Part shown: positions 33,521 through 63,217 of the stretch, in pieces
How positions within the stretch are numbered: position 1 is the stretch's first letter
Layout of the letters: every line of letters begins with the position of its first letter
Source: Hydrolagus affinis
Taxonomy: Eukaryota
Reading direction: 5' to 3'
Assembly: GCA_012026655.1 (NCBI GenBank)
Contig: JAAILG010001354.1
Coordinates: 1 to 64,000 of the forward strand
Length of the DNA stretch: 64,000 nt
The notes under the pieces: generated by a model
The model's database searches: none
The model's input: the letters and a program-made list of their open reading frames with translations, nothing else
Told to the model about the DNA's origin: nothing
Position numbers and translations under genes: made by a program

Positions 33521-34060
33521 AACAACTTACAACAACAACTTCGATTTATATAGCCCCCTCCTCGCTGGACGGCGTCTCAGAGTGCTTCAAAGTAACAGGT
33601 CCCGGGACCGAGTCAGGGCCAAGGGTAGGAAGGTGACCAAATTGCACAGTCGAAGAGAAAGGTCTTTAGCTGTGACCTGAAACTGGGAAGAGAGGTGGGG
33701 GCGAGGCGAAGGGAGTGAGGAAGGGAGTTCCAGGGGGGTAGTAGCTGAAGGCACGGCCGCCGAGGGTGGAGCGGAGGATTCGGGGGAGGAGGAGGAGGCC
33801 AGACCCAGTGGAGCGAAGGCAGCGGGTGCTGGTTTGGGGAGAAAAGAGATCAGAGAGGTAGGTGGGTGCAGAGGAGTGGAGGGACTTGAAAACAAGGGTG
33901 AGGATCTTGAAGTTGATCCTCTCAGGGACTGGAGTAATGGGGGAGCGAAGCTTGATGCGGGTGAGTATGTGGGTGGCAGAGTTTTGAATGAGCTGGATTT
34001 TGTGGATTGTGGTGGCGGGGAGACCGGCGAGGAGAGCGTTGCAATAGTAACAGGGATCTA
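33521..34060 (-). mobile_element. L2 LINE 3' portion
   Basis: (CAA)n tail, G-rich plus strand, gctgaaggcacggccgccgagggtggagcg, gaggatcttgaagttgatc and ggcagagttttgaatgagctg; homologous to 39811-40352. Confidence 0.88.
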
Positions 34061-35833
34061 TGAATGTAAACCAGTTTCACCCTGAGCCTTGAGCCTCCAT
34101 TAATCGAAGCAACTATGCTCATTTGGAAGATTCTTCATACTATTCAATACTATTTCTTCATCTGCTGTATTCTCCCTTTCTTTCAGCTGCGCCAACTAAT
34201 GTGCATTCTAAGTAATAAATCCCAAATTAGACCACTATCCTGGCACTGGCCAGCAAATTTCATGGGTATTTAAACAGCAGCATTAAATACTGCATGCATC
34301 TCTGGAATGCATAGCCTGAGTTGCAGTGTTTTAACAAATTACTTAAGGTTTTTGAAAAAGAAAGAACTTCCTAAAGGATTTGCGTGACTGTGAAAGTAAT
34401 TCACTGAGTTGCTGTTTTTGCCATGTTCAAGCAGGAACTCAAATGAAATGGTACATCTCAACCTTGTACTTTGCCTTCGCTCTATGTTTTCCCTCATGTT
34501 GTGAATGTGTCACTCTGCAATGGACAAAGAGGTCTACCGATTTGCCATGATATTTTTTGTGGCTAGTTTTTCTGGGCAACTTATGTCAATAAGACCTGGT
34601 ATTTGCTATCAAACTCTCTCCCCCCAGGCCCCAGCAGCAGTGGTATTATTCTTACTAATGGCACTATTTTTATCAGTTAAATGAGATTGATGTTGGAATG
34701 AGCAATAATAATATTTTACAGAAGAAGTTGCCTTGTCTATAAGAGGGGTAGCAAGGAAGCCTTGTTGAATAAATAAATAATTTCTATACCACAAGACCAA
34801 GAAGGCCCGAGTTTAAAATATTCTGAACAAGTTGGATACGTTCTCTAGGTTTTGAGTTTTGACTGTTGATTGCTGAGCTGCTAAATGTCTTTTTCTACAT
34901 TAGAGAGCAAAATACTCTTGTGTTGTGTAAGGTACGGAATCTACTGCACCATACAGGGAATGCATCCTGCTGGTTGAATATCCAGTGCGGGTGATGTTAG
35001 TCACTGAGAAGTCCGCAGCCTAGTCTCTCTTAAGGCTCTTCGGTGAAATAAGAACCATGGTTGCAGAAATAATATGAGTTTGAACTCATCAAACAAAGGA
35101 AACAAATTACTATTTTTTTTAAAGGCTGTCTGGATCACTGCGACACATGGAAAAACAAATAATTGCAAATGATTCAATTCCAGATTAGATGATTTCTTTA
35201 CATATTAAGCAATAAACAAACACAAACACAAAACATCAGAAAGGGTATTCTCATTGCTCAAACCAGCACATTCATTCAACTCTCTCTCTCTCTGTTTTTT
35301 CTTCTCTCTCTATATACGTACTTATATGTGTACACACACACATAATTCTGATCTCTCACCATCTTGCATCAAGTAATAGGAAAAGCATCCACCAATTGGG
35401 TTCCACAGCAAACAGAATAGAAATCCGATATTTGGATTTAAAACAAATACACATAAAATCTATATTATGAATTATAAATGTTGCTCCTTGTAAATACACA
35501 AGAATTCAATATCCTTGAGATCAAATATAAATAGACGATATGAGCATTATTATGTTCAAAAGAAGACATGCAAATTGCTTGATTCTGTTATTATACTACT
35601 AATAATAATAATATATACTAATAATAATCGTTGTATTTGATTATCCTTATATTATTATTGGTGTAGTGTCTGGAGCATGTCTTCAAGAACTTCACAGGAT
35701 ATCCTGTGAAGTGTAGTGAATGTATAGATTGTAGCCAAATGTTCAGGATATGTGCAGTGATTCCAGCATCATGATATAATCATGGGTCTGAAGATTCTAT
35801 GCATGTCTTTTAAAATGTAAGCAATGGTCAATA

Positions 35834-36188: not shown

Positions 36189-36197
36189 TGTTACCTG
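36189..36197 (-). other. ZNF536: 5' splice donor of the ZNF536 coding exon
   Basis: CAG|GTAACA with GT at 36194-36193. Homology ends here and the ORF hits a stop 9 codons later. Confidence 0.9.
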
Positions 36198-38373
36198 AAG
36201 AAGATGGTGAGGACGGGTTTGGACTATCTTCCTGGGTACTTCCCATCATAGAGAAACCTCCGGCAGTCGTGTTGTCCTCAGTGACATTGGACGATCCTGG
36301 TGTCGTTGACCTACTGATTGACTGGGAATCCTGGTCGCTTCCAGATCCACGTCGTTCATCTAATGGACTCTGGAGGCCTTCATCACCAGGCTTCCTGCTC
36401 TTCTTGTGCACTCGGGAATGGACCACAACCTGATGGTAGGTTCGGAAGACTCTGCCACAGTCTGAGCATTCGGTTGGCTTTTCCTTCATAGTTCCGTGGT
36501 TTTGTCCCAATCCGGAAATTTTGTACTCCAGTCCTTGATTCATTCCTTGTGCCACGAATTCCCTGCTTCCCAATGAATCATCTTTACCTGAAACGTCAGT
36601 CAGGTTACTTCTCTTAGTGCTTCGAATCAAATCAGCCTCTGGTCTGGGCTTTGATTTATCTCCAGCTACAAAGACAAATTCTCCTTTCTCCTTATCAAAG
36701 ATGACACCTGCGTTTGCTAGAGCTTCTTCCTGACCAGGCTGCAGGTATTGCTTTTTTGGCAGGACAGCCTGCTCCACAGCCATTCCTCTCGTCACCAGCT
36801 GCCAGGCCTGGTAACTGTTTACTGGATCAAACTCTGCCACTCGGGCCACTGCCTGCAACCGTTCCATGCAGCTCGCCTTCAAGGGAGGCGCCAGGTTCAG
36901 ATACCCGAGCAAGGAACGCTTGTCACCCTCTGCCATGACACGGCCCGTGCTGCCCACTGGCATGATGAGCTTTCCGAGCATTTCTTTCTCCTTCCTTGCG
37001 ATTTCCCCTTTGTTATAATGCAGCTGGTTTTGTTCGCTTAAGCTCGCTTTGTCGGGAGACAGGAAACCGCTCTGTAAACACGATACATATGCAGAATAGA
37101 CGCTGGAGTTGGATTCCTGCACCATATCATTCAGAGTAACAGGCACCTCTCGGTTATTCTGGGATTTGTTCTTGACCGCTAGTTTGTTCAGATGCACCTT
37201 CATGTGGTTCTTCAAGAACCAGGGCTCCTTGAAGCGACGCCCACAGATCTGGCAGCAGTGCTCAAAGGAATCCTTGTGTTTTCGCATGTGACCCTTCAGG
37301 AACCAGGCCTGGCTGAAGACCTGGCCGCAGACTTCACAGCGAAACTCGTTGGCCAATTGCTCTCCGTTGCCACCGGACCCCTGGCCCTGGGCGGACTCGG
37401 CAGTGATGTGCGCTTTCTCCACGTGGCTAATCAGGTCTTCCTCCTGCGAGGCGGCGAATTCACAAAGGGTGCACTTGTAGGGTTTGTGGAGGATTCGGAT
37501 GTGACGGTCCAGCTCCTCGCGTTTCTTAAACTTCCCTTTGCAAAAGGTGCATCTGAATCCCATGGCGGCAGCAGTTGGCTCCTCCTGAGCGCCCGGCGGC
37601 TTGGGATTGGAAACCGCATTGGCCCCATCGGAACTGCCCTGACTGGCTGGCGAAGGCAAACTGGAGGAGCTCACGACAGCCTGCTGCTGCTTGCCGTCGG
37701 CCTTGGGCTGGCCCAGGCTACTTTTCAGCTGCTTGTCCCTCAGGATGGCCCTCTCTTCCAACTCATGCAGGAGCCTGTTCTCTTCCCTGACCCTCCCGCG
37801 GCCTTTCCCGAGATTGCCAAGTTTGTGAGTGCGGAGGTGGATCTTCAGGTTGCCTTTCTGAGCTGCCCTGTGATCGCAATAGGGGCATTTGAAGGGCTTC
37901 TCCCCCGTGTGGGTGCGCATGTGGAGAGACAAGATACTGTTGAAACGAAAGCGTTTGCCGCAAATGGGGCACGGGTACTTCCTGGATTTCTTCGCATCAT
38001 CTTCGGTGCCGTTCATCTGCGAAATGATGCCCAGATTCTGTCCGTTTAAGAAGTGCTGTAAGTCAACTCTCCCATTCATACCCAAGTTTGTGTCAATATC
38101 CGCATTCAGCTGATTTGCCAGCAAGGTCATTTGGCTGCTGATGGGTTGGCGTTTATCCTCCAGTGCTATTGCTGCTTTTTCCTCAGGGTTTTGCCTGGTC
38201 TGGAGCTCTGGGCAGGCATGTCCCAGTTGTGTTGTCAACTGATGCAGCTTCTGGCTTATTGGGTACTGGCCATTAAGTACCGGTTTGCTGACATTAAGTA
38301 CTGATTTGTTGAGCTGGGCATCAGGTTCAGGCACAGCTGAGGGTACACCAAGGCACAAACTTGCTTCCTCCAT
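36195..38373 (-). CDS. ZNF536: Zinc finger protein 536, first (large) coding exon: 726 codons + 1 nt, seven C2H2 fingers
   Basis: Translation starts MEEASLCLGV and contains KYPCPICGKRFRFNSILSLHMRTHTGEKPFKCPYCDHRAAQKGNLKIHLRTHKLGNLGKGRGRVREENRLLHELEERAILRDKQLK, which matches recalled ZNF536. It ends PSSPSSS at CAG|GTAACA. The 2179-nt phase-1 exon fits the recalled ~2.17 kb phase-1 human exon. Confidence 0.96.
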
Positions 38374-38415
38374 TCCTAATGTTAAATTTAAAAAAGCGGA
38401 GAAAAAAGAGAATAA
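38374..38415 (-). other. ZNF536: 3' splice acceptor of the ZNF536 coding exon (exon starts at 38375)
   Basis: Minus strand reads ttctctttttctccgcttttttaaatttaacattAG|GA ATG GAG: a pyrimidine tract with the AG two bases before the ATG. Confidence 0.88.
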
Positions 38416-39810
38416 CATTAATGTTAACAATATTTATTCCGCAAAAAACTAAATTTGGATTTCGATAGATAGAGACAAGAAAAGTTCCAAGATGAGGAAA
38501 TACTATTTGCAAAACTCTACTTTCTGCTTCTAGTAATATCCAGCATCAAATTCATTTTATATTGATTTCACAAAGCAAGGGACAACAAAATCCCAGCTCT
38601 AGGTCTCAATTTCAAATGACATAGCAGAACTGAATCACAGTTGCATCTGCGTTTCTGTGAGTGTGGTTTTAACGTTTTATTGCCACTATCATATCCTCGA
38701 TTATTAGCTTGTTTGCAATTCTGAATAAATGATGAACAGCACTGAATTATTGACATTGTGTTTGCCTACTTTAACCGTTATTGTGGCAGTTTATTGGGAC
38801 CAGGGAAAATGGTCAGAGACTTTTATCCTTTTATGCATCTGCACCTTAAATTTTAATGAAAGTGAGATAGGCAGTGCCAGTTTATGTAAAACATTTAAAA
38901 ACCGCAATGACTGAATCTCTCATTGTCTGATTCCGAACAATGATGCATCTATAATAAACCTTGTGAAAGCTAGGCTTTCGAATAAAAATTAACGAAGGGA
39001 GTTGTTTTGGTCAACTAAAGTAATATCTTTTAAAGCTGATTATTCTGCTGCCTGGAAACAGTATGTGTTGCTGTAACCCATGATTACAATCATAAAAAGC
39101 CATGGGTATTTGCAACTAAGCTTCGAACAGATATATTAAATTTAAGAAGCTCATCAAAGTTCTAGAAATACGTTCACATCGCTTCACTAATCCGCAAGCA
39201 CCTCACATTACATTTTCACACATTTCTTTAAGTTTCACAAAAGTTCACAAAGCATTTAGTGCATCTCTTAAAAGGAAGGCTTTTAAAAAATATATACATA
39301 AATACAGCAGCAGGCAAACCATGTGGAATCCATTGGGCAGCTTAGAAACATGTGTGGCTGCAACTCACACACACTGTTAGGCAAACTATAGTTCCTCCAT
39401 TTTTTCTACCATTACTTTCTGATGTTTTAACATTGGATTCTGCCAGACCGATTGTTCACCATTGAAATGTGTGCCATGACACTATTTTGACGGCAATAGC
39501 TAAATTGAACAAAACCCTTCAATACGATCAGGCTCTTTTCACATGCAAGCCCAGAGCAGGCTTGCATGTGAAAACAACAATTTCATTCAATTTTCCTCCC
39601 AACTCCCCCGCTTAAAAAAAGAAAAACAGAATGTACTACAGATTATAAATATTATTATTGCATCAGACAACTGATACAACCTCTCTTCAAGGTCATAAAA
39701 CAGCTGAAAACATTTGTATTTCCAAAACAGATCAAGGATTTTAAGCTTGTATGTTAGCCTCTAGAGTTGGGACACCAAAGAAGGCCATTTTATTTATTTT
39801 TTGTCTACTA

Positions 39811-40352
39811 AACAACAACAACAAAATTACATTTGTATAGCACCTTTCACATCGGGAGGATGTCCCAAGGTGCTGGTCAGACAGTATTTTGGACCTGAGC
39901 TGTGGGGGGGTGGAAGAGGGGGATTGGGAAGGGTGGACGTCAGAGGTGGGTCCAAAAGCATGATCGAAGAGAAAGGTTGGTTTTCAGGCAGGACTTGAGA
40001 AATGGGAGAGAGGGGACAAGGTGGAGGGATTGAGGGACAGTGTTCCAGAGTTTTGGGGTGTAGTGGTTGAAAGCACGGCCTCCGATGGTGCGATGGAGAT
40101 TGTGAGGAACAAGCAGGAGGCCAGTGCCAATTGAGCAGAGTTCTGAATGAGCGGGTGATGGATTTTTGGAATGAGGAGGTTGGAGAGGTAGAGTGGTGCC
40201 AGAGAGTAAAAGGATTTGAACATGAGTATGAGGATCTTGAGGTTGATCAGTTCGGTGATCGGGGGACAGTGAAGCCCGGCCAGAACTGGTGAGATGTTGG
40301 TACGGAGTTTGGACTGGATCAGTATGCAGGAGGCAGAGTTCTGAATGAGCTG
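39811..40352 (-). mobile_element. L2 LINE 3' portion (ORF2 C-terminus plus tail)
   Basis: QLIQNSASCIL...NISPVLAGLHCPPITELINLKILILMFKSFYSLAPLYLSNLL matches the L2 motif LQ..QN.AAR...HITP.L..LHWLP...RI.FK; (CAA)n tail. Confidence 0.92.
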
Positions 40353-41055
40353 TTTTTTTTCAATAACATTCAACTTGAAACGAAAGACAAGGGAACTGAA
40401 TATTCGATTTCACTGCGTAAACATTACTGTACATTTCATATTATTGTATTCCAGCTATTGTTCCCACCAAATGAGGACTTCAGTCCTTACCCAACATAAT
40501 GCACATCCCTTCCTGTCAATCCCAACCTTTTTTTCTTATGGAGAAAGGTTGTATGAATTTTAAACAATTTTTGTTACGCAGTTCACAGCCTCATCCTTCC
40601 TCATATCTAATCAGACATGTGAGGAAGCATGAGACTATGAGATGCACAACTAAATTATTTTATCTTTGGGGCGGGCATAGGGGCAGCAAACTCCACCACA
40701 ACTCTGTCACTTTGATAGTGAGATGCGACCGTGCTGAGAAGTTCCAGTCTTTCCGCTTAGAAGCCTGGCTGTGAACTACTTTAACTCGTCACATTGGTTT
40801 ATGGGATTGCAATGTTCTCAGTGATCAGTGGAGTATGAATGCGCAACACAACAGTGAGCAATGAACTTCAGCTGGCCATCCAACATACATTTCAGTGCAG
40901 TAGTGTCATACACATACTGACTGAAATACGTAACCATTTAGGGAGTTTGATCTGCCCTCCCGAAGAGGAAGTGGAGATAATGGAATATGGAGCTAGTTTG
41001 AGCATTGGTCACCAGGGCTCAGGCTAGACTTGCTCAGGTGGAGAGGCAATCCAGT

Positions 41056-41210
41056 CAACAACAAGCATTTATAGAGTGCCCTTCATGCAGGCTAGCGGCC
41101 TGGAACGCTTGGCAATGATGGGGTCTGACATTACGCCAGGAAGGGGAGGTAGGAGTTGACCGTAAGCATGATCAAAAAAGAAGTTCCTTAGGTGGAATTT
41201 GAAGGTGGGG
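41056..41210 (-). mobile_element. L2 3' fragment
   Basis: caacaacaagcatttatagagtgcccttcatg...gaccgtaagcatgatcaaaaaagaag. Confidence 0.6.
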
Positions 41211-42800
41211 TTTGAAGCACTTGACTCACTCAGATGGTCATGAAGACAGGTATCAGGTCTGCATCAGCCTTTGACAATTTGGGATCTAGAGAGTTTGGTG
41301 GGGTGGGGGGAAAGGGGAAGGTTGTCTTTGGGGACAACTCTTGTTCCCTTGAGGAATGCATTTCGGTCAAATTGGGTTTAAAGGGGTGATTGGGGTCCAA
41401 CCTTACACCCCAATAAAAAAAAACATTTGAAGCCTATTTTAAAAATAGCTCAGCCATTTAGGAGTTTTCTACAGCATAGGTCAATATTTGCAAAGGTCGA
41501 CAATTTACTAAATGGTAACATTTCAGGTTTACTTTCAGAACATTTATTTTTCAGAAATTCTGATTAAACTTCAAAAGTAAAAATTTACACATATGTATGA
41601 TATTTAAAATAGCATTTTGCATTATCCAGGAAAAATGACATCCATTTCTCAGCAAACATTTACAAGTAGATGCTGAATGACTCATAGCAATTTAAACTGC
41701 GCACTATAAAATTTGAACAGACCTTGCCAATACAGATTGATTGCATGGAAACTTTTTCGCTCTAATGTTATCTGTCATAAATTTGTAATTAGAGTTGATA
41801 GTAATAGGTTGCTATTAAAATGCAGACAATAACTCCCACCTGAGAGCTAAACCGTCTTTTCTGTTATATTTCTACGAAACAGCCCTGTTTTTCATCACAT
41901 AAACATTTTGAAAATAATAGTCTTCAAAATCAGAATGCTGATTATTTTTAAAGAGACATAAAGACATAACACTGTCAAAGTATACATTTGAATTGGTCTA
42001 TTACTATTTGCCTTTTGGCTCATCTACACAACTGGTAACTGGACTCTCATTGTGGGAGCATGAGTTGAAGTCCAGAACACTTGCTTGCTCAAACCCCGCT
42101 AATCTCTGCGGGCATGTTTTGCTGATTCTCGGATGAACGATTGGACGGAGCTTCTCTTCATGCAGAGCGCCTCCATCTCAGGTGCTGAAACCTAATCTTC
42201 CCCAGCAATAAGACTCTCCTGCTGGCTAAGACAGAGAGGCATTGTCTGTGGTCCTCAATCTAGACTGTCCCACCCTCTTGACTGAAGGAAGGCATGAATG
42301 TGGTGCCTACTTTACAGCAAGAAGGGGAATGCGACCAGTGATAACAATATTTTATTTTACTTTGTACTGTGCGTTTTTCAAAAGCTAAAACATCCTGTTA
42401 TTCAATCCCATGGAATTTAGTTCTGGCAACTTAATAACAATAGAGGTCAATTTCATTAAGTGGAAGCCATGTAATTCTGCACTTAAATGTACTGTATAAC
42501 TTCACTTTGTAAAAAGAGTTGTAAAAGACAGCAATTTCCCAGGGCTATTTCAAGGGTACCAGCTGTACTTCTTACAGTAACTATGTTTTTCAAAAAGTTT
42601 CAAAAGTGTTCATTGTATTGCAGAGTGTGTTAAAAACATTTTGATTGGAATTACAGACAGAGACAAGGTCCAGTGTGAACTAAGGACATTTGTCCCTCTG
42701 GCTTCCTCCAGATAGAAATTTTACATCTTGACCAAGACATTAGATAAAACAGACACTCAGAGGTGCCCGACTGGATGCAGTATAAAAAAGGCAAACACTT

Positions 42801-43082
42801 GGATGTATTCGCCTTATAAGCGAGAGATCTGGGTTCGATTCCCGGCAGGCAGGGTGAAACCTTGGGTATGTTTCCTTACTCCACACGCCTAATAACAATC
42901 CCTTAAAAAAAATTAGTCATTTCAATCCACTACTGTTTGTGGGTCACTGCTGTGTGCAATTGGCTGATGCGTTTCATCCACAAATATACGATCAATTGAC
43001 TCTACAGTATCTTCTATGAAGCGCTTTGAGATGTCTAAAAGATGTGAAAATCGCTATATCAAATGCAAGGATTATTATTATA
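42801..43082 (+). mobile_element. tRNA-derived SINE, A box missing
   Basis: ttcgccttataagcgagagatctgggttcgattcccggc...tttccttactccacacgcct...gcaaggattattatta; aligns to 2270-2576. Confidence 0.9.
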
Positions 43083-43261
43083 CAGTATTATCAAAGAATC
43101 CCAACAGCAGGGCGATGTTTGAACTTTTGTGCATGTAGCAGATTCTAGGGCACACAGTCTAATTGGATAAATGCGTCTTCCCTCTTCTAGTTTTGGTTGG
43201 GTATGCTGGTGAACAGGTCAGTGAACACCACAGTGTAGCCCTCCAGGGGTTTAATGTTTCA

Positions 43262-43533
43262 GCTGTCCCTCAGATAAGATGTTAAAGACCTAATGCTATC
43301 AGCCTGTTCTAGTTGGTGTTGACGATTTGGACCCTGTTTTGAAAAAGAGCAGTGTCTATTCTCAGTGTCCTGACCAATCCAACTCCACATCTCCCCACCA
43401 CCACCAAAAAAAAATTCACCACAAAATAAATAAATTCCCCTTGCTGCTGAGGGGCATTGCTAGTGTAGGATACACTTCAAGGTAGCTCATTCTGCAAAGC
43501 GCTTTCCGATGTTTAAGGTTTGCTATCAAATGG
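43262..43533 (+). mobile_element. Deu-domain SINE, degraded
   Basis: gctgtccctcagataagatgttaaa...ttttgaaaaagagcag...gtgtcctgaccaa. Confidence 0.65.
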
Positions 43534-43544
43534 ATGATATTTCT

Positions 43545-43760
43545 ATGCACGTGCATGGGCAACTGAAGGCTTTTCAACCTCATGGCGACACCACAGCTGG
43601 AGTGTCCAGTTCTCTAACACAGACTCACACGCACCAAAAAGGGCAAAGGGACCAATAAAGTAAAATGAAGCCAAGGGGACTGATTGTAGTATTCCCACTG
43701 CTGACCCAGTGAACGCAAGGTAAAAAGTACCTTCTATGGCACCTTGTAAGGCTCAGAACA
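43545..43760 (-). mobile_element. Probable degraded copy of the SINE family at 28995
   Basis: aggcttttcaacc...ccacagctggag...ctcacacgcac loosely matches the reverse complement of 29160-29260. Confidence 0.35.
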
Positions 43761-46179
43761 TTTCTTTGGAAGTAAAATAAGAACAAAAAAAATGAAAACA
43801 TGAAAGTATTATCTGTGCTTTTAATTAGGTTTATAATTATTGGTTAACATATACAAGTGAACATACATAGCAGGTTATAAATTTGAAATTTAAAAAAACC
43901 AGTTAATTGGAAAAATCACACCGGGTTGCTGCTGTGAAACCATTAACATTCATATTTATATGAAATGGGCCACTTAGTTCATTTTAAAATCAACATTTGA
44001 CAAAAAGGCTATGAAACAAATCTATTGCAAGTTTGTGCAGCACATCTGAGTGATAGACAGCAGATACCTCTAGACACGAAGGGAGGTTTATGAATCCTGG
44101 ATATCTCACTTTAATTTAACTCTTGTCTTCTTTTTCAAGGTCTGTAGAAGTATCAACATTTGTGGTATTATGTCAATGCTAACAAACCCACCTCTAATTC
44201 AGACTAATTCATTAGTCAAACCCACCACTGTCTAATTCCATTTATGTGCAAGTTTCTTTTTTAAAAATCATTTGAGTCTTTAAAACTGTTTCCTTCAATG
44301 GTATTCTAATCCACCAAAAAAATGTTAAATGTTATGTGGGAATAAAAAGATCAATGTGTTTTTTTTTAAAATGGTCTCTATTTGTATGGAACTCAAATTA
44401 TATAAACAATCTGTAAATTGGAATCTAACTGAAAATCCTTAATAAGAAGGAATTTCACTCAAAATGATTGTATTGAAGTGAAGTTTCGTCAGGTCAGTAT
44501 AGCCTACGTCCAGTTCCAGGAAGGAGTTCCCTATCTGTGGAACATATTAAGGAATCCTACAAAATGGACAAATTTTAACAGAAATGCTGGAAGTGTAGCA
44601 GCAAATTGAATGACTGGCAAACCTACAACTGAAAATATAGCATTGTATGATGAAAGTATTGCCCATTAAATGTTTCTGGATTACAAATATACAACTTCAA
44701 ACTGATGAATTTTACTTGGGAGGTTCACACCACAGATGATCACTGGAACTTTTTCGTACAACCAGATAGTGGCAAGACACCCAAAATACAGCAAGATTTA
44801 CAGCAATCATTCCATGAATGCCACAGCCGCAGGGTAAGACAACACGGACAGTGAAAATATTTTCAGAAATACCTCTAGTCAATCTGAAGCAAACAAGTTA
44901 TTGGAACTTATCGGAAAACAGAGCAATGTAACCAAGAACTACCACAAAATACAACTAGCTTTCAGCAATAATATTATTCAACTGCAGCAAAACCCACGTA
45001 TTACTAATAAAAAAAAAGCATTGCGCAACTCACATAGCACAAGAATCATACTGAAGGTTTGAAGTAGTCATGAATGGAGATGTGCATAGTGTTCACAATG
45101 ACAACAGAAGCAAAATTGCTCAAGAGAAAGACTCTCTCTGACTATTTATCTATAGTGCAATACCTTCAGATGAACATAGTTCTCAGAACATTTTTCCTCT
45201 CTGTTTAAAATAAATGACATGATGAAGATTGGGGCTGCAACAGTGCACTCCATTTTACAAAGCTCTGACAGACACCTCTGATCTCACAATTACTAATACA
45301 CACTCAGTTTACAGAAACCAATTAAATGAAACAAAAAAACAATAAAATGAATCGAGAGAGGGACACAAACAAACATTGCGGAAAATAGTAGAAACAAAAG
45401 AATAGACAAACAGCATCAAATGAGGCAATTTGAATATCATAATCCACCAGCAATTATTAATATCATGTTAAAGACTTTGCTATACTTTGGCACATGAGCT
45501 ACTGCAGAATAATGGAGCCTAAAAATGAAAAGACGAGTCTTTAAACACAGGTTATAGAATATCTCGAGTACACAATCAAATGGCAGAAGAAACTCAGAAG
45601 CAGCTAAAATCCAAAAGACATACATGCAATTGAACCACACCTATTTGCAATGGTAAATATAATTAGAATTACAGTAAATAGTGTGCACAAAAATATATAA
45701 CATTGCACAACTAAATAACAGTATCTATTCCCCTTCTACTCTATTTCAGTATTGAAAGCCCAGTCTTCTAAACCTGGGTAATACTCATATAAGACACAAT
45801 TTATGGAGCGAAGAGAATCTTTAACCTAATGAAAATAATGATAACCGACTCTGGAATACAAATCAACAAGAAAATAACAACCTGCTCTGTCTGCAGACAC
45901 TTCACAACAAAAACTAAATTACAATGAAATCCCCACAGACGAAATTAAATAGATTAGTGGACACAAAAATCTACACTGCGTAAATTCATACACCAAAGAA
46001 TAAGTGACATCCAGATAAAGTAAAGCTCAGATGTGCTGGGATACCAGGCTCCAGTATGCTGAAAATAAAAAATATCTCAAAACAAAAAAAAAAGATTCCA
46101 ATGAAAATACTATTAGTTTTCTGAATAGTACAATTGCTGATGGAACATTCGATTTAATCATCCACTCAACAAAACAATT

Positions 46180-46390
46180 TGTCACACATATTACACATAC
46201 ACTCAAACACACACAAACAATTACACATGCACACACACTCAATTCTACACACACACACACAATTCCTTGCACGCACACATACATTAACTTACATATAAAC
46301 ACACAATCCCACAATATACATACACACAATATTGACTGTACATAATGCACACATACTGGCACAATTACACACAAATGCATCACACACATC
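46180..46390. repeat. Degenerate (CA)/(TA)-rich low-complexity tract
   Basis: Directly visible. Confidence 0.85.
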
Positions 46391-46391
46391 T

Positions 46392-46477
46392 GTTGCGCCC
46401 ACAAAATGTCAATTCATTTCACAGTATATCGTGTGAAGCACTTTGAGACGTCTCGAAAATGGGAGAAGTGCTAAATC
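46392..46477 (+). mobile_element. SINE 3' fragment
   Basis: gcccacaaaatgtcaattcatttcacagtatatcgtgtgaagcactttgagacgtc. Confidence 0.75.
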
Positions 46478-48846
46478 ATAGGCAATGATTACATGCACGA
46501 CTTAGGACAAGACATTTAATGTATAATGTGTATAACAGCCACACATTCTGGATTTCTACTTTTGAGCAAAGACAAAAAATTATACTTGATTTTTTTTTTC
46601 TCTGGTTAAACATAATGGAAACCAAAAACAGAAGAAATTTTTTTTTATTTAAGACTCTAAAACAGTTCTGATCCTTCCTTGCTTTAACATATTTCAATAA
46701 AGATATTTGGAAATCTAAACATCTCCTTAAAAATATCAACTCACAAAATGGTGCCACCTGGATTTTTCATGAGCTTTGATCCTGAATGTAGATACACTTT
46801 AAACGTACCACTTCTCAAGCAATGAATACACGTGAAAATGGCAAAAAAGTGAATAAAATAATTCCAAAAGCTATTAAAATGGGTTTTAATGTCTATTGAA
46901 TAAATAGAAAGCAGGTTGTGAACCAGCGGTTTACTGGAAAACAAACAACTTGTGTCCGAGGCAACATCAGTTAATCGCACCTGCAGTGCAGCGCTGTGCA
47001 GTCAACTTCACTCTGTGATTTATTTCTCCTTCTGACATGAGCTTCTGACATGCATCCTCTATATCAGACAGTGACAGCACCTGCCGCATCCTTGTGTGCT
47101 TTGGAACAAGATTACACTGCTATCTGAAATTTTTTTTTAAAATCCTGGTTCTGTTCCTAAATATTTACGGAGAACATTTCCCTGGTCATGTACAGATGTT
47201 TTTAAGAGACTTGTAAATTGAGAAGTTAATATTTGTACAAAATAATAGGTTTGCCCCAAAACTTTGAGGACTTTTGTGTTGGCTAATTTCAAGCGACAAA
47301 GTTGGCATGTATAAACAGGACTGGGAATTCACCTGCCTTTAGTCCTACTTTCAGGATTCTTACCCCCTTGGAAAGTGCAGTTCAAATGTTCCAGGAAAAA
47401 AGTGGAAGAAGGCCACCTTTGCTTGTTGAGACCTTGTTAGGGGCCAAAAACTCTTGCAGCATTGCACAGCTGAGAAGGCTTATTGTAAAGTGAATATTTA
47501 ACTCCAGGTCAGAGCTGGAGTTATTGAACTTAATGAAGGGGGAGAATTTAAGACATCTCCACAGTAGTGACAGAGAGAATACACTGCTGGTAGCAGATCC
47601 TCAGTATGGTAGTATCATAGCGAAGAAGAAGGCAGCCTTCAAACTCAGGAGCAAATATGGAACATAACCGCCAGTGGCTACAACCCCTTGGTTATGGGTA
47701 CAAATACTTGTGATTTGTCAAGTGTAACAAGTAGAGTCTCCATATCTAGTTGAGAGCTTCAGGTTGATGGTGGGGTGTGTTACAGGGCTGTGTACATGAT
47801 TCACCAAGGCTATATTACTAACGTAATTACAGAAGGCAGAGATAGACAGAAGACAGAAGATCTCCAGTCCTCTCCCCAATTGTGTTACGAGGGACCTCTC
47901 AGGCACCCACAGGGGGCCATGGCAGAAGTAGCTAGACTGTCGTATCTTGCAACATTAAGGAGTTACTCAGAGCAAAGTGCCATACTATAGCACCAGCAAC
48001 AGAGCAGTCATTCCTAACATGGAGATAAGCGTGAACTCTGTAACAGGGCATCAATATTCTCAATTACACATATTTACAGTCTCATGCTTACATGCTCTAT
48101 GCAGGAAGTGCATCTGAAGTGACTGTACATATGATGCACACATCAGTGCCGCACTATGTGTACAGACGTCGGTAGCAACTGAATGCCCCAGTGATTAGCC
48201 TGCTTTTTATGCCTTGCTTATATAACGCGATCGGTGAGACACTGGATCCAGCCAACCATGCGATAACAAGGTTTCTCTAGATTCGGAGCTTGGGAGAAAC
48301 AAGAAAAGGAAGATCAGAGGAACAAAGAAAGACAATGATATCAATAAAATAGAGATAAATAGCACAGGCTGTAATGAAGCAAGAGGATGGGCGGCAAAGA
48401 TCAGGGAAGGATCAACAATCAAGACTGCGAGACATTTCTTCCATCCTGTTCAGAATGACAAAATACCATTTAACTGGCTTGGTGGTTGCTTTGTTCGCCT
48501 GAACTGCATTTAATTGTAGGTATATTGGCTGCTATCTTGTTAACGCTAACCAAATTCCATTTTTCACACAACAGGATTTAGAAATTCCAGGAACCAAGAC
48601 AAGCTCATCACAAATTTTATTGAAACAATTGAAAAAACATACTGCTGGTTTCTAAGAAAAAAGGAATGTTGTCTCCCAAATTTGACTGAGGTTCTAACCC
48701 AGCTGACACTGGGTTAGAATGTTTAAATAAAGCTAGCACCTTCTTCTCTGTATAGATCTGTGGCATGTGCTTTCTGATACCATCATATTTATAGAATGTA
48801 ATATCAGTTTCCTCTGAAGCCAGCAGACCAATTACAATACAAATGT

Positions 48847-49124
48847 GGAGTCCTGCATCTTAATGGTTAGAGTACTCGCCTCACAAGCCAGCATTGTTTG
48901 GCTGATTAGTTTTTTTTGCAGAGGTGATAATCCCTTCTAAATAAGTAAATAATAATAATTTGGTTACTCAATCCACAACTGTTTGTGGGACACTAATGTG
49001 CACAATTGGCTGCCGGGTTTTTCCCACAAAACATAGTCAATTCACTTTACAGTATATTCTGTGAAGCACTTTGAGACATCTAGAAGATGCGATAAGGCAC
49101 TATATCAAATGCAAGGATTATTAT
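48847..49124 (+). mobile_element. tRNA-derived SINE with the B-box region deleted or replaced
   Basis: The head ggagtcctgcatcttaatggttagagtactcgcctcacaagc is followed by unrelated sequence, then by the standard 3' half and tail. Confidence 0.85.
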
Positions 49125-49479
49125 TTTTATAATACTGAGAACACAATAAGTCAGTGAAGCTTAGCGTACCATTTCACAACGCAAATTTAGTTTTTACATC
49201 GATCCTAATTTTTTAAATAAGTATGTGTAATATCAATTGTGTTATAATTAGGCCCAATATAGATTTTATAATCTCTGCAGTTCAAGGTTGCAGATATATT
49301 AATATTGCAAGCAGAAGAGTTAAAAATATTTTTCCAGAAAACATTTCTTTCAAAAAGCTTTTGGAATAGGGAGAAATGATGCAGAGCTCAAAGCAACACT
49401 AATGCAGTGGAGCTGTGAATCCGATCCCAAGTTGTCAATAGGTGATTTACATTTTTAATAGCATTCAAGCAATATTTTA

Positions 49480-50060
49480 AGGAACTGGCAACGTGCCTAG
49501 TGCTGTTAACGTTTACTGAGAAAATGCACACTGCTCATAATAATGAGAACAGTGACAGGAGTGGAACCGCAAACACTCAAAAAAACAAAACAAAAGGAGC
49601 TGCGTTTTCTGATCAAACTTTACTATTTATACTCTTATTCTCTTCCGTACCTTCACAAAAAAGGGGTTTGTTTCTGTCAGTGAGTTTCGATTGACAGAAT
49701 GCCAGCTATTCCTAAAAAAACAAAAGCAGCGCCTTCAAAAAAAACTGCTCCGCAAATTAAATCTATTTCCCGCACGCTTATTGATAAATATGGTAACCAC
49801 AGAGAGAAAAGAGAAAAAAAATGAACTGAACTATAATTTTTCACAAATGGCGAAAATGGTGATTGACAGCACAGGCCACGCATGCATAATGCATCTTATC
49901 CACTTTTGCAGATTGCCTTGTTACCAGTAATGGGAATAGTCTGTCATAAACCATTTTTGAAGCTGAAGTAAGAATTCTGTCAGACAATAAAACAGTAGAG
50001 TAACCTTGACACCAAATATCTCGGCACAATCATTAGTATCTTTTGGAATTTTCTGGCCAG
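49480..50060. promoter_or_regulatory. Candidate conserved enhancer (PBX/MEIS/HOX sites)
   Basis: TGATTGACAG at 49860, CGATTGACAG at 49688, CTGTCATAAA at 49941; retains CpGs; repeat-free. Confidence 0.45.
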
Positions 50061-50774
50061 CAAAAGGTAAATATTCCTTGGCGATCGGTTAAGATACAAT
50101 TAATCTATTGCATAATACAATTTTAAAACAGGTGACATCTCTGTGGTGTAAATCACAGTGTCGCAACCCACAAATCGCAGCCGTGCACTTCAGATGAGAC
50201 AACATCTCATTTCATCAAGTGCCCTTTTATTTGGGCCAATGGGTATGTATGCTGGGCAACTCCATTCGCAACCAAAATGCTTTGTTTTGCTCTCTCGATA
50301 ATCAGCTTATTTGTTATTTTGCTGCATTTCAGTCCTCCAGACAGTTATCTATAAATGTGCCCTTTAATACTCAATAGGCTGGTATAATCACCTTGTGCAT
50401 GGGTGAAACTCCTGTTTTTGCTGCATTTATTTTAAACAGGTGACTGCAGGTATAATAATTGAGTCATTATAGTTCAGCATTGTTAGTTCACGATTTACTG
50501 ATACGATGTAGTTCCCATAAGAAAGGAGTCCAACCACTAAGCATCATTTACAAAAAAAGTTGCAAAGAATTACAACCATCTTAAGAACCCCTGTGATTTT
50601 TTTTCCCCCCGTGGATTTTTTTTGCATGATTCTGTTTAAGCTGAGGCTATTAATGGGAAAACTGCAGTAAAAAAAATTATTACCGAGCTCACATTATGAG
50701 GGCTTTAATTCATGTCAGTGATACATGATGCTGTGATAGTTTGTTGTTTTGCATTCCAAATTTTATCCAGTGTC

Positions 50775-51116
50775 AGTCTGGCTCAGTTGATAGTATTCTT
50801 GTCTCTGAGTCAGACTGTTGTGAGTACAAGCCTATATAGTCTTGGCTGACACCCAATGCAGTGCTGCAGGTGTGCTGCATTATTGGAGGTGCTGTCCCTC
50901 AGATGAGACATTAAACTAAGGTCCCCTCTACCTATTCAGGTGTATGTTAGCAATCCCATGACACTATTCAAAAAGAGAAAGGAGAACAGGCCAACAAGCT
51001 CCAAAATAAAATTGGTCATTGACATCATGGCTATTTGTGGGACACTATGTGAGTAAATTCTGTGAAATCCTTTGTTACGTCCTCTCAAGGTGAAAGGCGC
51101 TACATCAAGTACAAGA
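50775..51116 (+). mobile_element. Near full-length Deu-domain SINE (SacSINE1/AmnSINE1 superfamily)
   Basis: tRNA head tggctcagttgatag; Deu core gtgctgcattattggaggtgctgtccctcagatgagacattaaactaaggtccc...atcccatgacactatt; L2-like tail gtgaaaggcgctacat. Confidence 0.85.
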
Positions 51117-51790
51117 CGTATTTCTTCTTCATTAACTGTATTGACGACCACAACCAAGTTTTTGGACTGATCTTGCCTGAGCTTAACTATTTACATTCAT
51201 ACAGAGCATTAATTTATGTCGCTAAATACTTCAGAAACTCTCGGGCCCAGTTCCAAGGCAATGTACTTAATCCAATCTGAAACTTCATTCCACAAAGTGT
51301 CATATAGAGAAGGAATGCACCTGCAGTACCTCTAAAATACACAACAGGTGCTTTGAACGCCAGGCATTCCAGTTACAATTCTAATATTAAAGGGGAAAAG
51401 AGAGCCATGACTCAGCAAATGTTTTCACTAATTACCCCGATAAGATTCCAACGTCTTCTCTCTCATGCCAGCAAAATTAACAACATACATACATCCGGTG
51501 TGCCCCAATGTAAAAATAATTTCTGGATTCAAAAAGATTTTCCTGAACTACAATGGGCAGGACTGCCACTCGCCTGTCCACTCACAGACTGCCAGCTTTG
51601 ACAGACGAGAAGTTTCTGCAAGTGCTGATAGATTTAGGATGAAAAGATAATTGAAAAAAAAGGCAAAAGACAAACGTCAATCAGCAAATGTTCACTCTTG
51701 GTTTTGTCCTGGAATTGCAGAATTCGACAGATAATGAGCACGGAAATAAATATATGGCAAATAGTCTGTGAGTAATAGATACGAAAGAAG

Positions 51791-51830
51791 CTTCTTACCT
51801 AAAAACCAAACAATTTAATCTTATTAGTAC
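51791..51830 (-). other. Candidate 3' splice site directly followed by a 5' splice site (recursive-splice-type site, or start of a non-coding exon)
   Basis: Minus strand reads gTACTAATaagattaaattgtttggtttttAG|GTAAGAag, with a branch A at -26. Confidence 0.5.
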
Positions 51831-52855
51831 AAACGAGCTTCAGATCCACAAATATAGAATACATTTTAATAATAATTGTGCCACAGATATCCATGTTTCC
51901 ATCTTTCACGGAAGACAACAACGTCTTTTAGGTCCACTGACAGTGTTTAACAATATCTTATTGACAGAATTTACGGACACTGTCATCAAGCAGCTCAGCT
52001 TTCAGCTCATCCCTGAAGATCAGGATAAGGAGAAATGGTAGGTTTTTATCCCCCTAATTCTGACATAGTTGAGTAGCTCTGCAGAACCAACTCATACAGA
52101 TGCCAGAATGATTCGGATAAAAGGCGTATGGGTTCAGAGGAGTGTAACAGGCTCACAAGGCTAAGAGGAGATCTCGCACATTTGGAGAGAAAAAAGACAT
52201 TCTATAATGAGGTACTAATGTGTATAAATAGTCTGTTGTCAACTAGTCTCATAATCTGTGTGTTTGCGACTGGAAGTGAATTAACAATATGGAACAATTT
52301 ATCTCAAAGCTTGGAAGTGCATTTCAAAAACACCCACAGCAGATACACCTTCCCAGTCAAGAAGTACCTGAAGATTTCCATGTTCCTCACTTTATATTTT
52401 AGTGTCTTGCACAATGACACTAATTTAGATTTCTAATAGGTTAGAATCCAGCAACCTTATTTTCATGTGGTCTAAAATAAGCCATTCAAGGGGAAAGTAA
52501 GAAATAATTGCTGTTTTCTCTTTCTCCGCAGTATTGCTGTAACACTTGCGCATAACAGATTGAACAAAACGCTGTTGTGACAGGTGGAAGAATTCAGCTA
52601 GTAAGCACAGAGACAGGGTTCAATTTAGTTTGGTGAATCCTTTAATTGTAGTGTAGCTAATTAGGGAAGGTTCTTTACACTCGAAAGTGTTTACACTCAC
52701 TAGTATGAATACATGAACGATTAAATTGTGCCTTTAAGGGGTTGAAACTACTGCGACAACAGAAAAGTATTTTGCCCTTATAGCAACATGTGGGCCACCT
52801 TTAAACATTGCTTTTCAAATCTGCAAGGATTTTGTAATCTGCTAAATTTTGGTAA

Positions 52856-53030
52856 AACAACAACTAATTGCATTTTTATCACACCTTTCACGTCAAGAGG
52901 ACATCCCATAGCACTGGAGAGACAGGAATCTGAACCTGAGCTGATGGTTCAGATCAGGAGGGCAAGGAGAATAGGGGTAGCAAGGTGATCAAAGAGATGG
53001 CGAACGAGATGGGTCTTGAAGGAGGCAAGG
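52856..53030 (-). mobile_element. L2 3' fragment
   Basis: aacaacaactaattgcatttttatcacacctttcacgtcaagaggacatccca. Confidence 0.75.
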
Positions 53031-62137: not shown

Positions 62138-63217
62138 TAATCTCCTAACACAGGATGCTGGTCAGAAGCACATTGGAACCAGGTAAAAAATATTATTGCA
62201 AATTAATTTATACTGTATAATATTTCTATCCGTAAGCGATCGTGGATCTAAAAATGCTGTGTGCACAGTGAAAGAGTAATCCGGCATTAAAAGGGTTAAT
62301 TTGTGCGGAAACAGACCACTGTATAATGTTCTTATTTGTAAAGCACAAGCAAGACAATTGGACATGAAACAAGCCTGCAATGCAACAGATGGTTACCAGC
62401 AAGTGCTGGTCACTTAGTTCAAATTGACAAAAGCATTTAGGTTCCTTAAATTGCCAGTTGAAGGCTGTGGTTTAACAGCGCTGCTTCAAGAGATGCACAT
62501 ACATACAGCACAACCTTGCGTTTCAGTGTTGGTTCACTGCCATCACTCAGTGAAAAATTCAGCAGCACCAGTTATTAGCCATTCAAGAAAAGAAATTAAA
62601 TCCTTCCCAGGGCTGAAAAAAAAATGGATGGGGGAAAATAAGCAGCTTCACTGAAACAGAAGCTAAAATGTTCTAATTTGCTCCATTTTCACAATGGGTT
62701 TTATTGCGTGGACCTGAAAGGTTTTCACAGTAATGTTAGTAATTTTGATAGCCTCATTGATACCCCTTTCCAATGATCAAACTACCTTACTTCAAGAACA
62801 TAATTCATTACATGAAGAACAGAATGTTGAAGAAAAAGTTTAACAGAAGATCACAGCCAATGTGATCGTCGGTAATGACAAGCTTGAGTAATTACAATTT
62901 TTAAAAAATGATCACAGCTGTGGTTCAGAATTTAGCCCCAGGGCTATTTTTTTTAACAAAGATCTGTATTGTAGCTGGCAGAGTCAAATACGAATATTTA
63001 AGAAACTTGCGCAGGATTTCTTAACCCAAGAGTTTGTATCAACTTCTGAAATCTGGTTGACCAGAGAGAGAGAGAGAAACTTGTGCCCAAAGACAGCATT
63101 CTCTATTCCTGCAAAATACTACAAATAAGGAAATAATACAATGTAACTCCCCTTAGCCCGAAAAAATGATTTTTACACTTTGAGCCACATGTGTTGACCA
63201 TTAAATCATAAAAAAAA

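Follow-up and report, generated by a model that had tools for sequence, protein, structure and literature searches.

Cryptic recursive splicing (RS) sites with an RS-exon were reportedly described by Sibley in 2015 for long vertebrate introns, and dual-specificity splice sites are said to have been reported by Zhang in 2007. About 20 RS sites have been found in mouse brain, all of them in introns of more than 51 kb and with pyrimidine-rich acceptors, and among the long introns of this tissue less than 0.06% showed RS (Moon and Zhao 2022, PMC8797253). For human, junctions supported only 342 of 36,870 conserved putative AGGT sites; the RS site of CADM2 reaches a MaxEnt score of 14.1, and in a competition model the rebuilt donor contends with the donor of the RS-exon (Zhang 2018, PMC6110456; the model in section 9). 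Distal exonic RS, by comparison, concerns cassette exons that end in YAG|GT and carry the branch point within the exon, with 10 lariat-supported cases, two of them at dual-specificity sites (Hoppe 2023, PMC10156609). Dual-use AGGT sites with more than 10 reads in human archives amount to 105,875 (Duan 2024, PMC10809524), and low-level dual use alone would hence be ordinary.

Here we analyzed a window of 64,000 nt from Hydrolagus affinis (assembly GCA_012026655.1, contig JAAILG010001354.1, positions 1 to 64,000), in which the minus strand, the sense strand of ZNF536, bears a TAG|GTAAGA motif inside the leader intron; the first coding exon follows 13.4 kb further downstream. The site resembles those of distal exonic RS in its YAG|GT exon end, a branch motif in the exon body, UTR position and low inclusion; unlike here, where exon and lariat are only predicted, those are annotated human cassette exons with lariat reads (PMC10156609). 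With the cryptic vertebrate RS sites it shares a sense-strand AG|GTAAG in a 5′ intron, the presence of weak donors no more than 350 nt away, a stronger rebuilt donor and a main mRNA without trace of the event (PMC6110456, PMC8797253), but its tract is weak, a better exon lies upstream, and its intron is seen only as at least 14 kb. Like a dual-specificity site, it places one AGGT between adjacent candidate exons, 214 nt upstream and 213 or 225 nt downstream; such sites serve as 5′ and 3′ site in mature RNA, whereas both uses are only predicted here (PMC10809524).

No report of RS in ZNF536/Zfp536 was found in the literature searched, which covered the text supplements of PMC8797253, PMC10156609 and PMC6224609, the S2 Table of Zhang 2018 and the main text of PMC13622621. 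According to a preliminary description of the present site, ZNF536 is not known to be among the described cases. The S2 Table gives human ZNF536 no candidate RS site. For recursive splicing in sharks, a full-text literature search yielded a single review.

Results

The gene could be identified as ZNF536, since the exon product is 68–72% identical to named ZNF536 proteins in a homologue search; both the gene and its minus-strand orientation had been assigned correctly before. Open reading frame, homologues and RNA-like contigs place the first coding exon at 36195–38375 on the minus strand (2,181 nt; ATG at 38373, donor GT at 36194), and the acceptor at 38375 is thus where it had been put. Two further contigs, C338 and C48676, carry later ZNF536 exons, the one on C48676 being likely exon 3. 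Upstream of the coding acceptor, the present contig continues for another 30.3 kb, up to its end at 68671, and RNA-like contigs of a relative give the leader intron a length of at least 14 kb. Downstream introns measure at least 39.9 kb (89.1 kb in human) and about 7.7 kb or more (12.9 kb in human), i.e., at least 45–60% of human length. In human ZNF536, a 71,004-nt intron with 5 conserved putative AGGT sites precedes the coding exon, and an annotated non-coding exon lies ahead of it (Zhang 2018, PMC6110456); none of these 5 sites is a junction-supported candidate in the S2 Table. In hg19, the five sites are on chr19 at 30892695, 30900482, 30911344, 30919820 and 30922393, and the annotated donor is at 30863463. 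As the downstream introns here reach the above share of human length, we infer that the counterpart of the human non-coding exon lies near or beyond the contig end and not at 13.4 kb, and that the fused site lies inside the counterpart of the human intron. It was by this intron-scale argument only that orthology of the fused site with the annotated human exon 71 kb upstream was set aside. The N-terminal extensions of the homologues did not map upstream within the contig. In the predicted eel and frog ZNF536 proteins (P0037, P0038), such an extension closes with ER ahead of the usual Met, which may be compatible with an upstream exon whose last letters are purine plus AG; this contig contains no match to these extensions.

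The fused site itself consists of three elements on the minus strand. A branch-point-like TACTAAT at 51823–51829 agrees with TACTAAC at 6 of 7 positions, and its A at 51824 (position −26) would be the branch nucleotide. It is followed by a short T-rich tract at 51802–51818, whose 17 nt comprise 11 T and 6 purines but no C, and by TAG|GTAAGA at 51793–51801, where the cut would fall between 51799 and 51798. These coordinates are identical to those first given. We scored splice sites with approximate position matrices for human data, and the ranks are hence rough. On this scale, the GTAAGA donor ranked 11th among 3,799 minus-strand GTs; it pairs with U1 at 8 of 11 positions. The TAG acceptor at 51799 ranked 357th of 4,328 minus-strand AGs with a 20-nt matrix and 713th with a 40-nt matrix, its tract scoring 0.5 bit and −5.9, respectively, while the real coding acceptor at 38375 ranked 759th and 16th. 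The branch motif is strong, and the pyrimidine tract is weak and broken by purines. Joined to an upstream exon, xAG|GTAAGA would form a donor of 6.3–7.3 bits, compared with 0.5 and 2.1 bits for the two donors downstream, by the same approximate matrices. The site had been called the best of its kind on the minus strand, and under a strict-consensus definition it is: there are five HAG|GTRAG sites in the window, three on the minus strand, and TACTAAY is found upstream of this one only. Ranked by summed score, it comes only 15th among the contig's 474 AGGT sites, and 6th when the minus-strand rows alone are counted. The region around it is free of repeats, as had been claimed, since 51380–52200 is single-copy, with itself as its only match in the genome and no paralogous copy. 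Rfam gave 0 matches, and the fold of 51560–52060 was ordinary for RNA (z −0.35). A second TACTAAC..TTTCAG|GT lies on the ZNF536 sense strand at 62713–62741 (minus), with a perfect branch consensus, a weak tract and a weak donor (GTCCAC). About 0.008 matches of this type are expected per 30 kb of one strand, and stronger acceptors are found close by at 62612 and 62602.

Genome-wide, the composite motif occurred 3 times and its reversed control 11 times; a second chance estimate, 584 TACTAAY..TTTYAGG sites multiplied by the chance of TRAG, gave 5.3 expected matches. The reversed control overstates chance, because with looser patterns it likewise gave roughly double the forward number (396 versus 172; 1,133 versus 584). 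By either estimate there is no genome-wide excess, and the motif alone therefore cannot carry the claim. A pattern tailored to the site had 0 matches in 20 Mb of third-order Markov sequence, so that locally the motif exceeds chance. Of the other two genomic matches, one (L004) marks the start of a protein-coding exon, and the other is surrounded by AT-rich sequence without sign of an exon. A single metagenome pattern match was rejected as chance; it sits inside a bacterial-type ORF and has no flank similarity.

Two acceptors near the site are absent from the preliminary description. The first, at 52013–52042 (minus), combines a pyrimidine tract with CAG|G, scores 7.6 bits and has an AG-free zone of 39 nt, and a clear branch point is lacking at −18 to −45 from its 52013/52012 cut (1.4 bits). 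Paired with the GT at 51798, it delimits a predicted 214-nt 5′UTR cassette exon, 51799–52012 on the minus strand, that ends in TAG|GT and contains the branch motif at 51824 within its body. Among 138,995 minus-strand acceptor–donor pairs, this pair ranked 21st, or 103rd with the branch score added. An acceptor this strong would be met 30–350 nt upstream of 4.4–8.2% of minus-strand positions by chance. A coding role of the exon was set aside, as it has stops in all three frames; one of its frames contains 17 protein-like codons up to a stop (51958–52011, minus). It has five upstream ATGs, and the corresponding uORFs encode 2–31 aa, are out of frame with the ZNF536 ATG and end before it. Five upstream ATGs are unusual for an included 5′UTR exon.

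Downstream of the cut, the preliminary description had placed an RS-exon at 51574–51798 (minus) that is 213 nt long up to the GT at 51585, TCT|GTGAGT, or 225 nt up to the GC at 51573, CAG|GCGAGT. The two weak donors, together at 51568–51588, are indeed at these positions. The pair ranks of the 213- and 225-nt exons were 2,477 and 1,465 of 138,995, or 1,350 and 827 with the branch score. The downstream side is free of ATG over 370 nt, a state shared by 26 of 1,187 overlapping 225-nt windows (about 2%), which favours this RS-exon. The second of the overlooked acceptors lies inside it, at 51625–51694 (minus), with a 68-nt AG-free zone, its AG at 51626–51625 and a rank of 36 of 4,328 with the 40-nt matrix; cut at 51625/51624 and joined to the same donors, it would give a micro-exon of 39 or 51 nt. 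Further upstream, at 53000–68600 (minus), crude scores point to six candidate exons that end in non-T plus AG|GT, e.g., 60982–60878 and 56470–56267, several of the six in repeat-like sequence.

Transcript evidence came from a close relative that differs from this genome at 21 of 678 coding nt. Positions 37700–52500 were compared with two RNA-like contig sets, X1 and X2, with the DNA-like set X6, and with X10, polyA single-cell raw reads, together four of 12 runs. The RNA nature of X1 and X2 is deduced from their behavior and is not on record; X2 depth was 136.7 on the coding exon versus 3–6 on the unique intron pieces listed. The main contigs of X1 and X2 match 37700–38377 and then run on for 400 and 191 letters, respectively, for which no second piece is found among the pieces listed within 38378–52500. 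As the RNA-like contigs stop matching at 38377 and a DNA contig of the relative at 38380, the usual upstream exon ends in non-T plus AG, and would therefore rebuild the 6.3–7.3-bit donor at the fused site. An exon ending at 51799 would have matched up to 38379, unless the relative differs there; the 38377 boundary would be compatible with an exon whose end is at the GC donor (CAG).

Over 51532–52025, mean X2 depth was 5.11; a stretch of 191 nt from the main contig would have produced a value of 53, and any 214-nt exon in this stretch has at most about 8% of coding-exon depth. Neither candidate exon thus exceeds about 8% of coding-exon depth in X2. Low-depth unspliced contigs cross 52012 in both X1 and X2. 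The preliminary description had proposed to look for junctions landing at 51798; in the relative's contigs, the 15 of 3,306 joints listed include none at 52012, 51799 or 51798, and all 15 lie in repeats. Contig sets drop rare forms and can omit contigs resembling human DNA, and the missing joint is hence a soft absence that does not show non-use. X10 covers the coding exon less than 1× and the site not at all, and no start cluster was seen in these raw reads, whereas assembled contigs do not reveal transcription starts; no CpG island was found. X1 depth over 51532–52025 was 17, near its coding-exon depth of 12.4–17.3, compared with 5 for X2 and 6 for the DNA run; this depth is unaccounted for by the pieces listed, 24 of about 178,000. 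The tables of X1 and X6 are incomplete, and part of the block may be included in X1. X2 depth was also raised over the DNA run at 39182–39675 (99), 44122–44615 (48) and 49556–50049 (71). At 44122–44615, X2 exceeds X1 by a factor of 11.2, matching the factor of 11.0 on the coding exon, and position 44191 holds a strong donor, GAG|GTGGGT; no piece of a main contig from this stretch was among the pieces listed.

The earlier impression of a conserved block holds for part of the region. The block at 51923–52323 differs from the relative at 17 of 375 nt without gaps (51923–52126 and 52153–52323), i.e., 4.5% divergence versus 8.6–9.3% for DNA-run intron pieces (205 of 2,389, p = 0.006, or 289 of 3,091, p = 0.0014). 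The first 90 nt of the 214-nt exon and the upstream acceptor fall within this block, which continues for 300 nt upstream of the acceptor. However, over the 344 nt of 51187–51530 we counted 29 differences and 18 gap letters, which is the background rate, and the pieces listed leave 51531–51922 uncovered. Moreover, other low-depth RNA intron pieces are equally conserved (72 of 1,374, 5.2%; p = 0.69 versus the block). These counts omit four repeat pieces (X1 records 4 and 5, X2 records 11 and 14) as well as X2 record 16, because of its overlap with X1 record 7. Indirect probes, namely a metagenome pattern scan and translations of non-coding frames, found no ortholog of the site; a weak repeat-protein match to a translated non-coding frame (P0121, E 5e-4, 31%) was rejected as such. 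LINE-like ORF fragments lie in the ZNF536 introns at 33590–34080, 39820–40410, 42850–43080, 46200–46460, 48840–49130 and about 50950–51100, and read depth marks high-copy repeat pieces at the LINE-like stretches within 37700–52500.

Discussion

Our analyses lead us to favour, tentatively and at well below even confidence, a reading in which TAG|GTAAGA is a dual-use or distal recursive site and closes a predicted 214-nt non-coding exon that would usually be skipped. Our weighting of this and all other readings is a matter of judgement, not of computation. For the preferred reading speak the rank of the splice-site pair, 21 of 138,995 versus 2,477 and 1,465 for the downstream exons, with an upstream acceptor of a strength met by chance for 4.4–8.2% of positions, the conservation of that acceptor and of the first 90 nt of the exon in the relative, the non-T plus AG end of the usual upstream exon, which would rebuild a donor of 6.3–7.3 bits, and the X2 depth, which caps the 214-nt exon near 8%. 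From the observed layout, two routes may be proposed. In the first, the acceptor at 52013/52012 would be paired with the GT at 51798 and the 214-nt exon would join the 5′UTR, where its five short uORFs would lower ZNF536 translation. In the second, the branch point and TAG within the exon's end would act as acceptor, and upstream intron and exon would leave as one lariat. The xAG of the upstream exon would then form with GTAAGA a strong new donor that could be spliced to 38375, leaving the mRNA without trace as in distal exonic RS. Taking all readings together, we consider it slightly favoured that the site is used as a recursive-type acceptor at all.

Several observations argue against the preferred reading and at the same time for an alternative of almost equal probability, namely a chance splice-like motif in a conserved enhancer-type intron block, unused or subject to rare splicing noise. 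The motif is not enriched, with 3 genomic matches compared with about 5 expected and 11 in the control (172 versus 396 for a looser pattern), and the other two matches are the start of a coding exon and AT-rich non-exon sequence. The tract at 51799 is weak, the joints listed show no junction here, and unspliced contigs run over the block. Other intron pieces are as conserved, and the block extends 300 nt upstream, as an enhancer-type element would. The lack of a clear branch point at the upstream acceptor, the five upstream ATGs, the scores from approximate matrices and the failure to obtain an ortholog further weaken the case for dual use. Among known sites, moreover, few human AGGT sites have junctions (342 of 36,870; PMC6110456), and RS is rare in long mouse-brain introns (below 0.06%; PMC8797253). 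A chance motif would nevertheless have to combine the sense strand, a strong donor and a near-consensus branch point at the usual distance with a good acceptor 214 nt upstream (4–8% by chance), the lack of any ATG over the 370 nt downstream (about 2% of windows) and above-background conservation adjoining the site.

The preliminary description had proposed that ZNF536 may be recursively spliced here, with a downstream RS-exon of 213 or 225 nt. In such a model, which we regard as unlikely, the RS-exon would define the acceptor of a cryptic recursive site and would be skipped because the rebuilt donor beats the weak downstream donors. Strand, gene, intronic position, single copy and the absence from the X2 main mRNA fit a site of recursive type, and so does the stronger rebuilt donor, with 6.3–7.3 bits against 0.5 and 2.1, as in the competition model (PMC6110456). 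The branch point at −26 is joined to AG|GTAAGA, and the RS-exon lies within 350 nt and is free of ATG. The RS-exon itself, however, is poorly defined: it is T-rich, contains the longer acceptor 51625/51624 of its own and ranks far below the exon 52012–51799 upstream, while 51187–51530 diverges at the background rate and the motif is not enriched. In known vertebrate sites, the pyrimidine tract is strong and, in mouse, the intron exceeds 51 kb (PMC8797253), and the CADM2 site has a MaxEnt of 14.1 (PMC6110456), whereas the tract here is weak and the intron is at least 14 kb; also, 0 of 5 conserved human AGGT sites appear as candidates in the S2 Table (PMC6110456).

Improbable, finally, is a plain 5′ splice site that closes a minor 5′UTR exon, either the 214-nt cassette or an alternative first exon, with an incidental branch-point look: the site does score far better as donor than as acceptor, a good acceptor lies upstream and in human ZNF536 an annotated non-coding exon precedes the coding exon by 71 kb (PMC6110456), but the X1/X2 main contigs do not end in TTAG, with which the match would reach 38379, X2 inclusion is at most about 8%, there is no CpG island, and the human exon would be expected to have its counterpart close to or past the contig end instead of at 13.4 kb. 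Most far-reaching, and very improbable in our view, would be that one AG|GT joins back-to-back ZNF536 5′UTR exons, the 214-nt exon with five uORFs and the ATG-free 213/225-nt exon, and serves as donor, acceptor or recursive step that sets translation, in an arrangement dating back to the ancestor shared by all jawed vertebrates.

The mechanism of distal exonic RS itself is already known, and an unused look-alike is nearly as likely as the preferred reading. If the site is used, it would be a recursive or dual-use site in a gene absent from the tables searched, and in a cartilaginous fish. If the preferred reading is true, distal exonic RS would date to early jawed vertebrates, and the locus would make it easy to test whether such splicing controls the entry of a uORF exon.

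Elsewhere in this genome, at L004 (G000:C5023:21282-21311, minus), a TACTAAT branch motif and a strong tract precede a coding exon whose first letters are GTGAG, and this exon is of the annotated RS-exon type; the gene looks like HIRA. Within the analyzed ZNF536 introns, 42439–42670 and 49868–50053 diverge from the relative by only 2.7–3.9% and are likely conserved non-coding elements.
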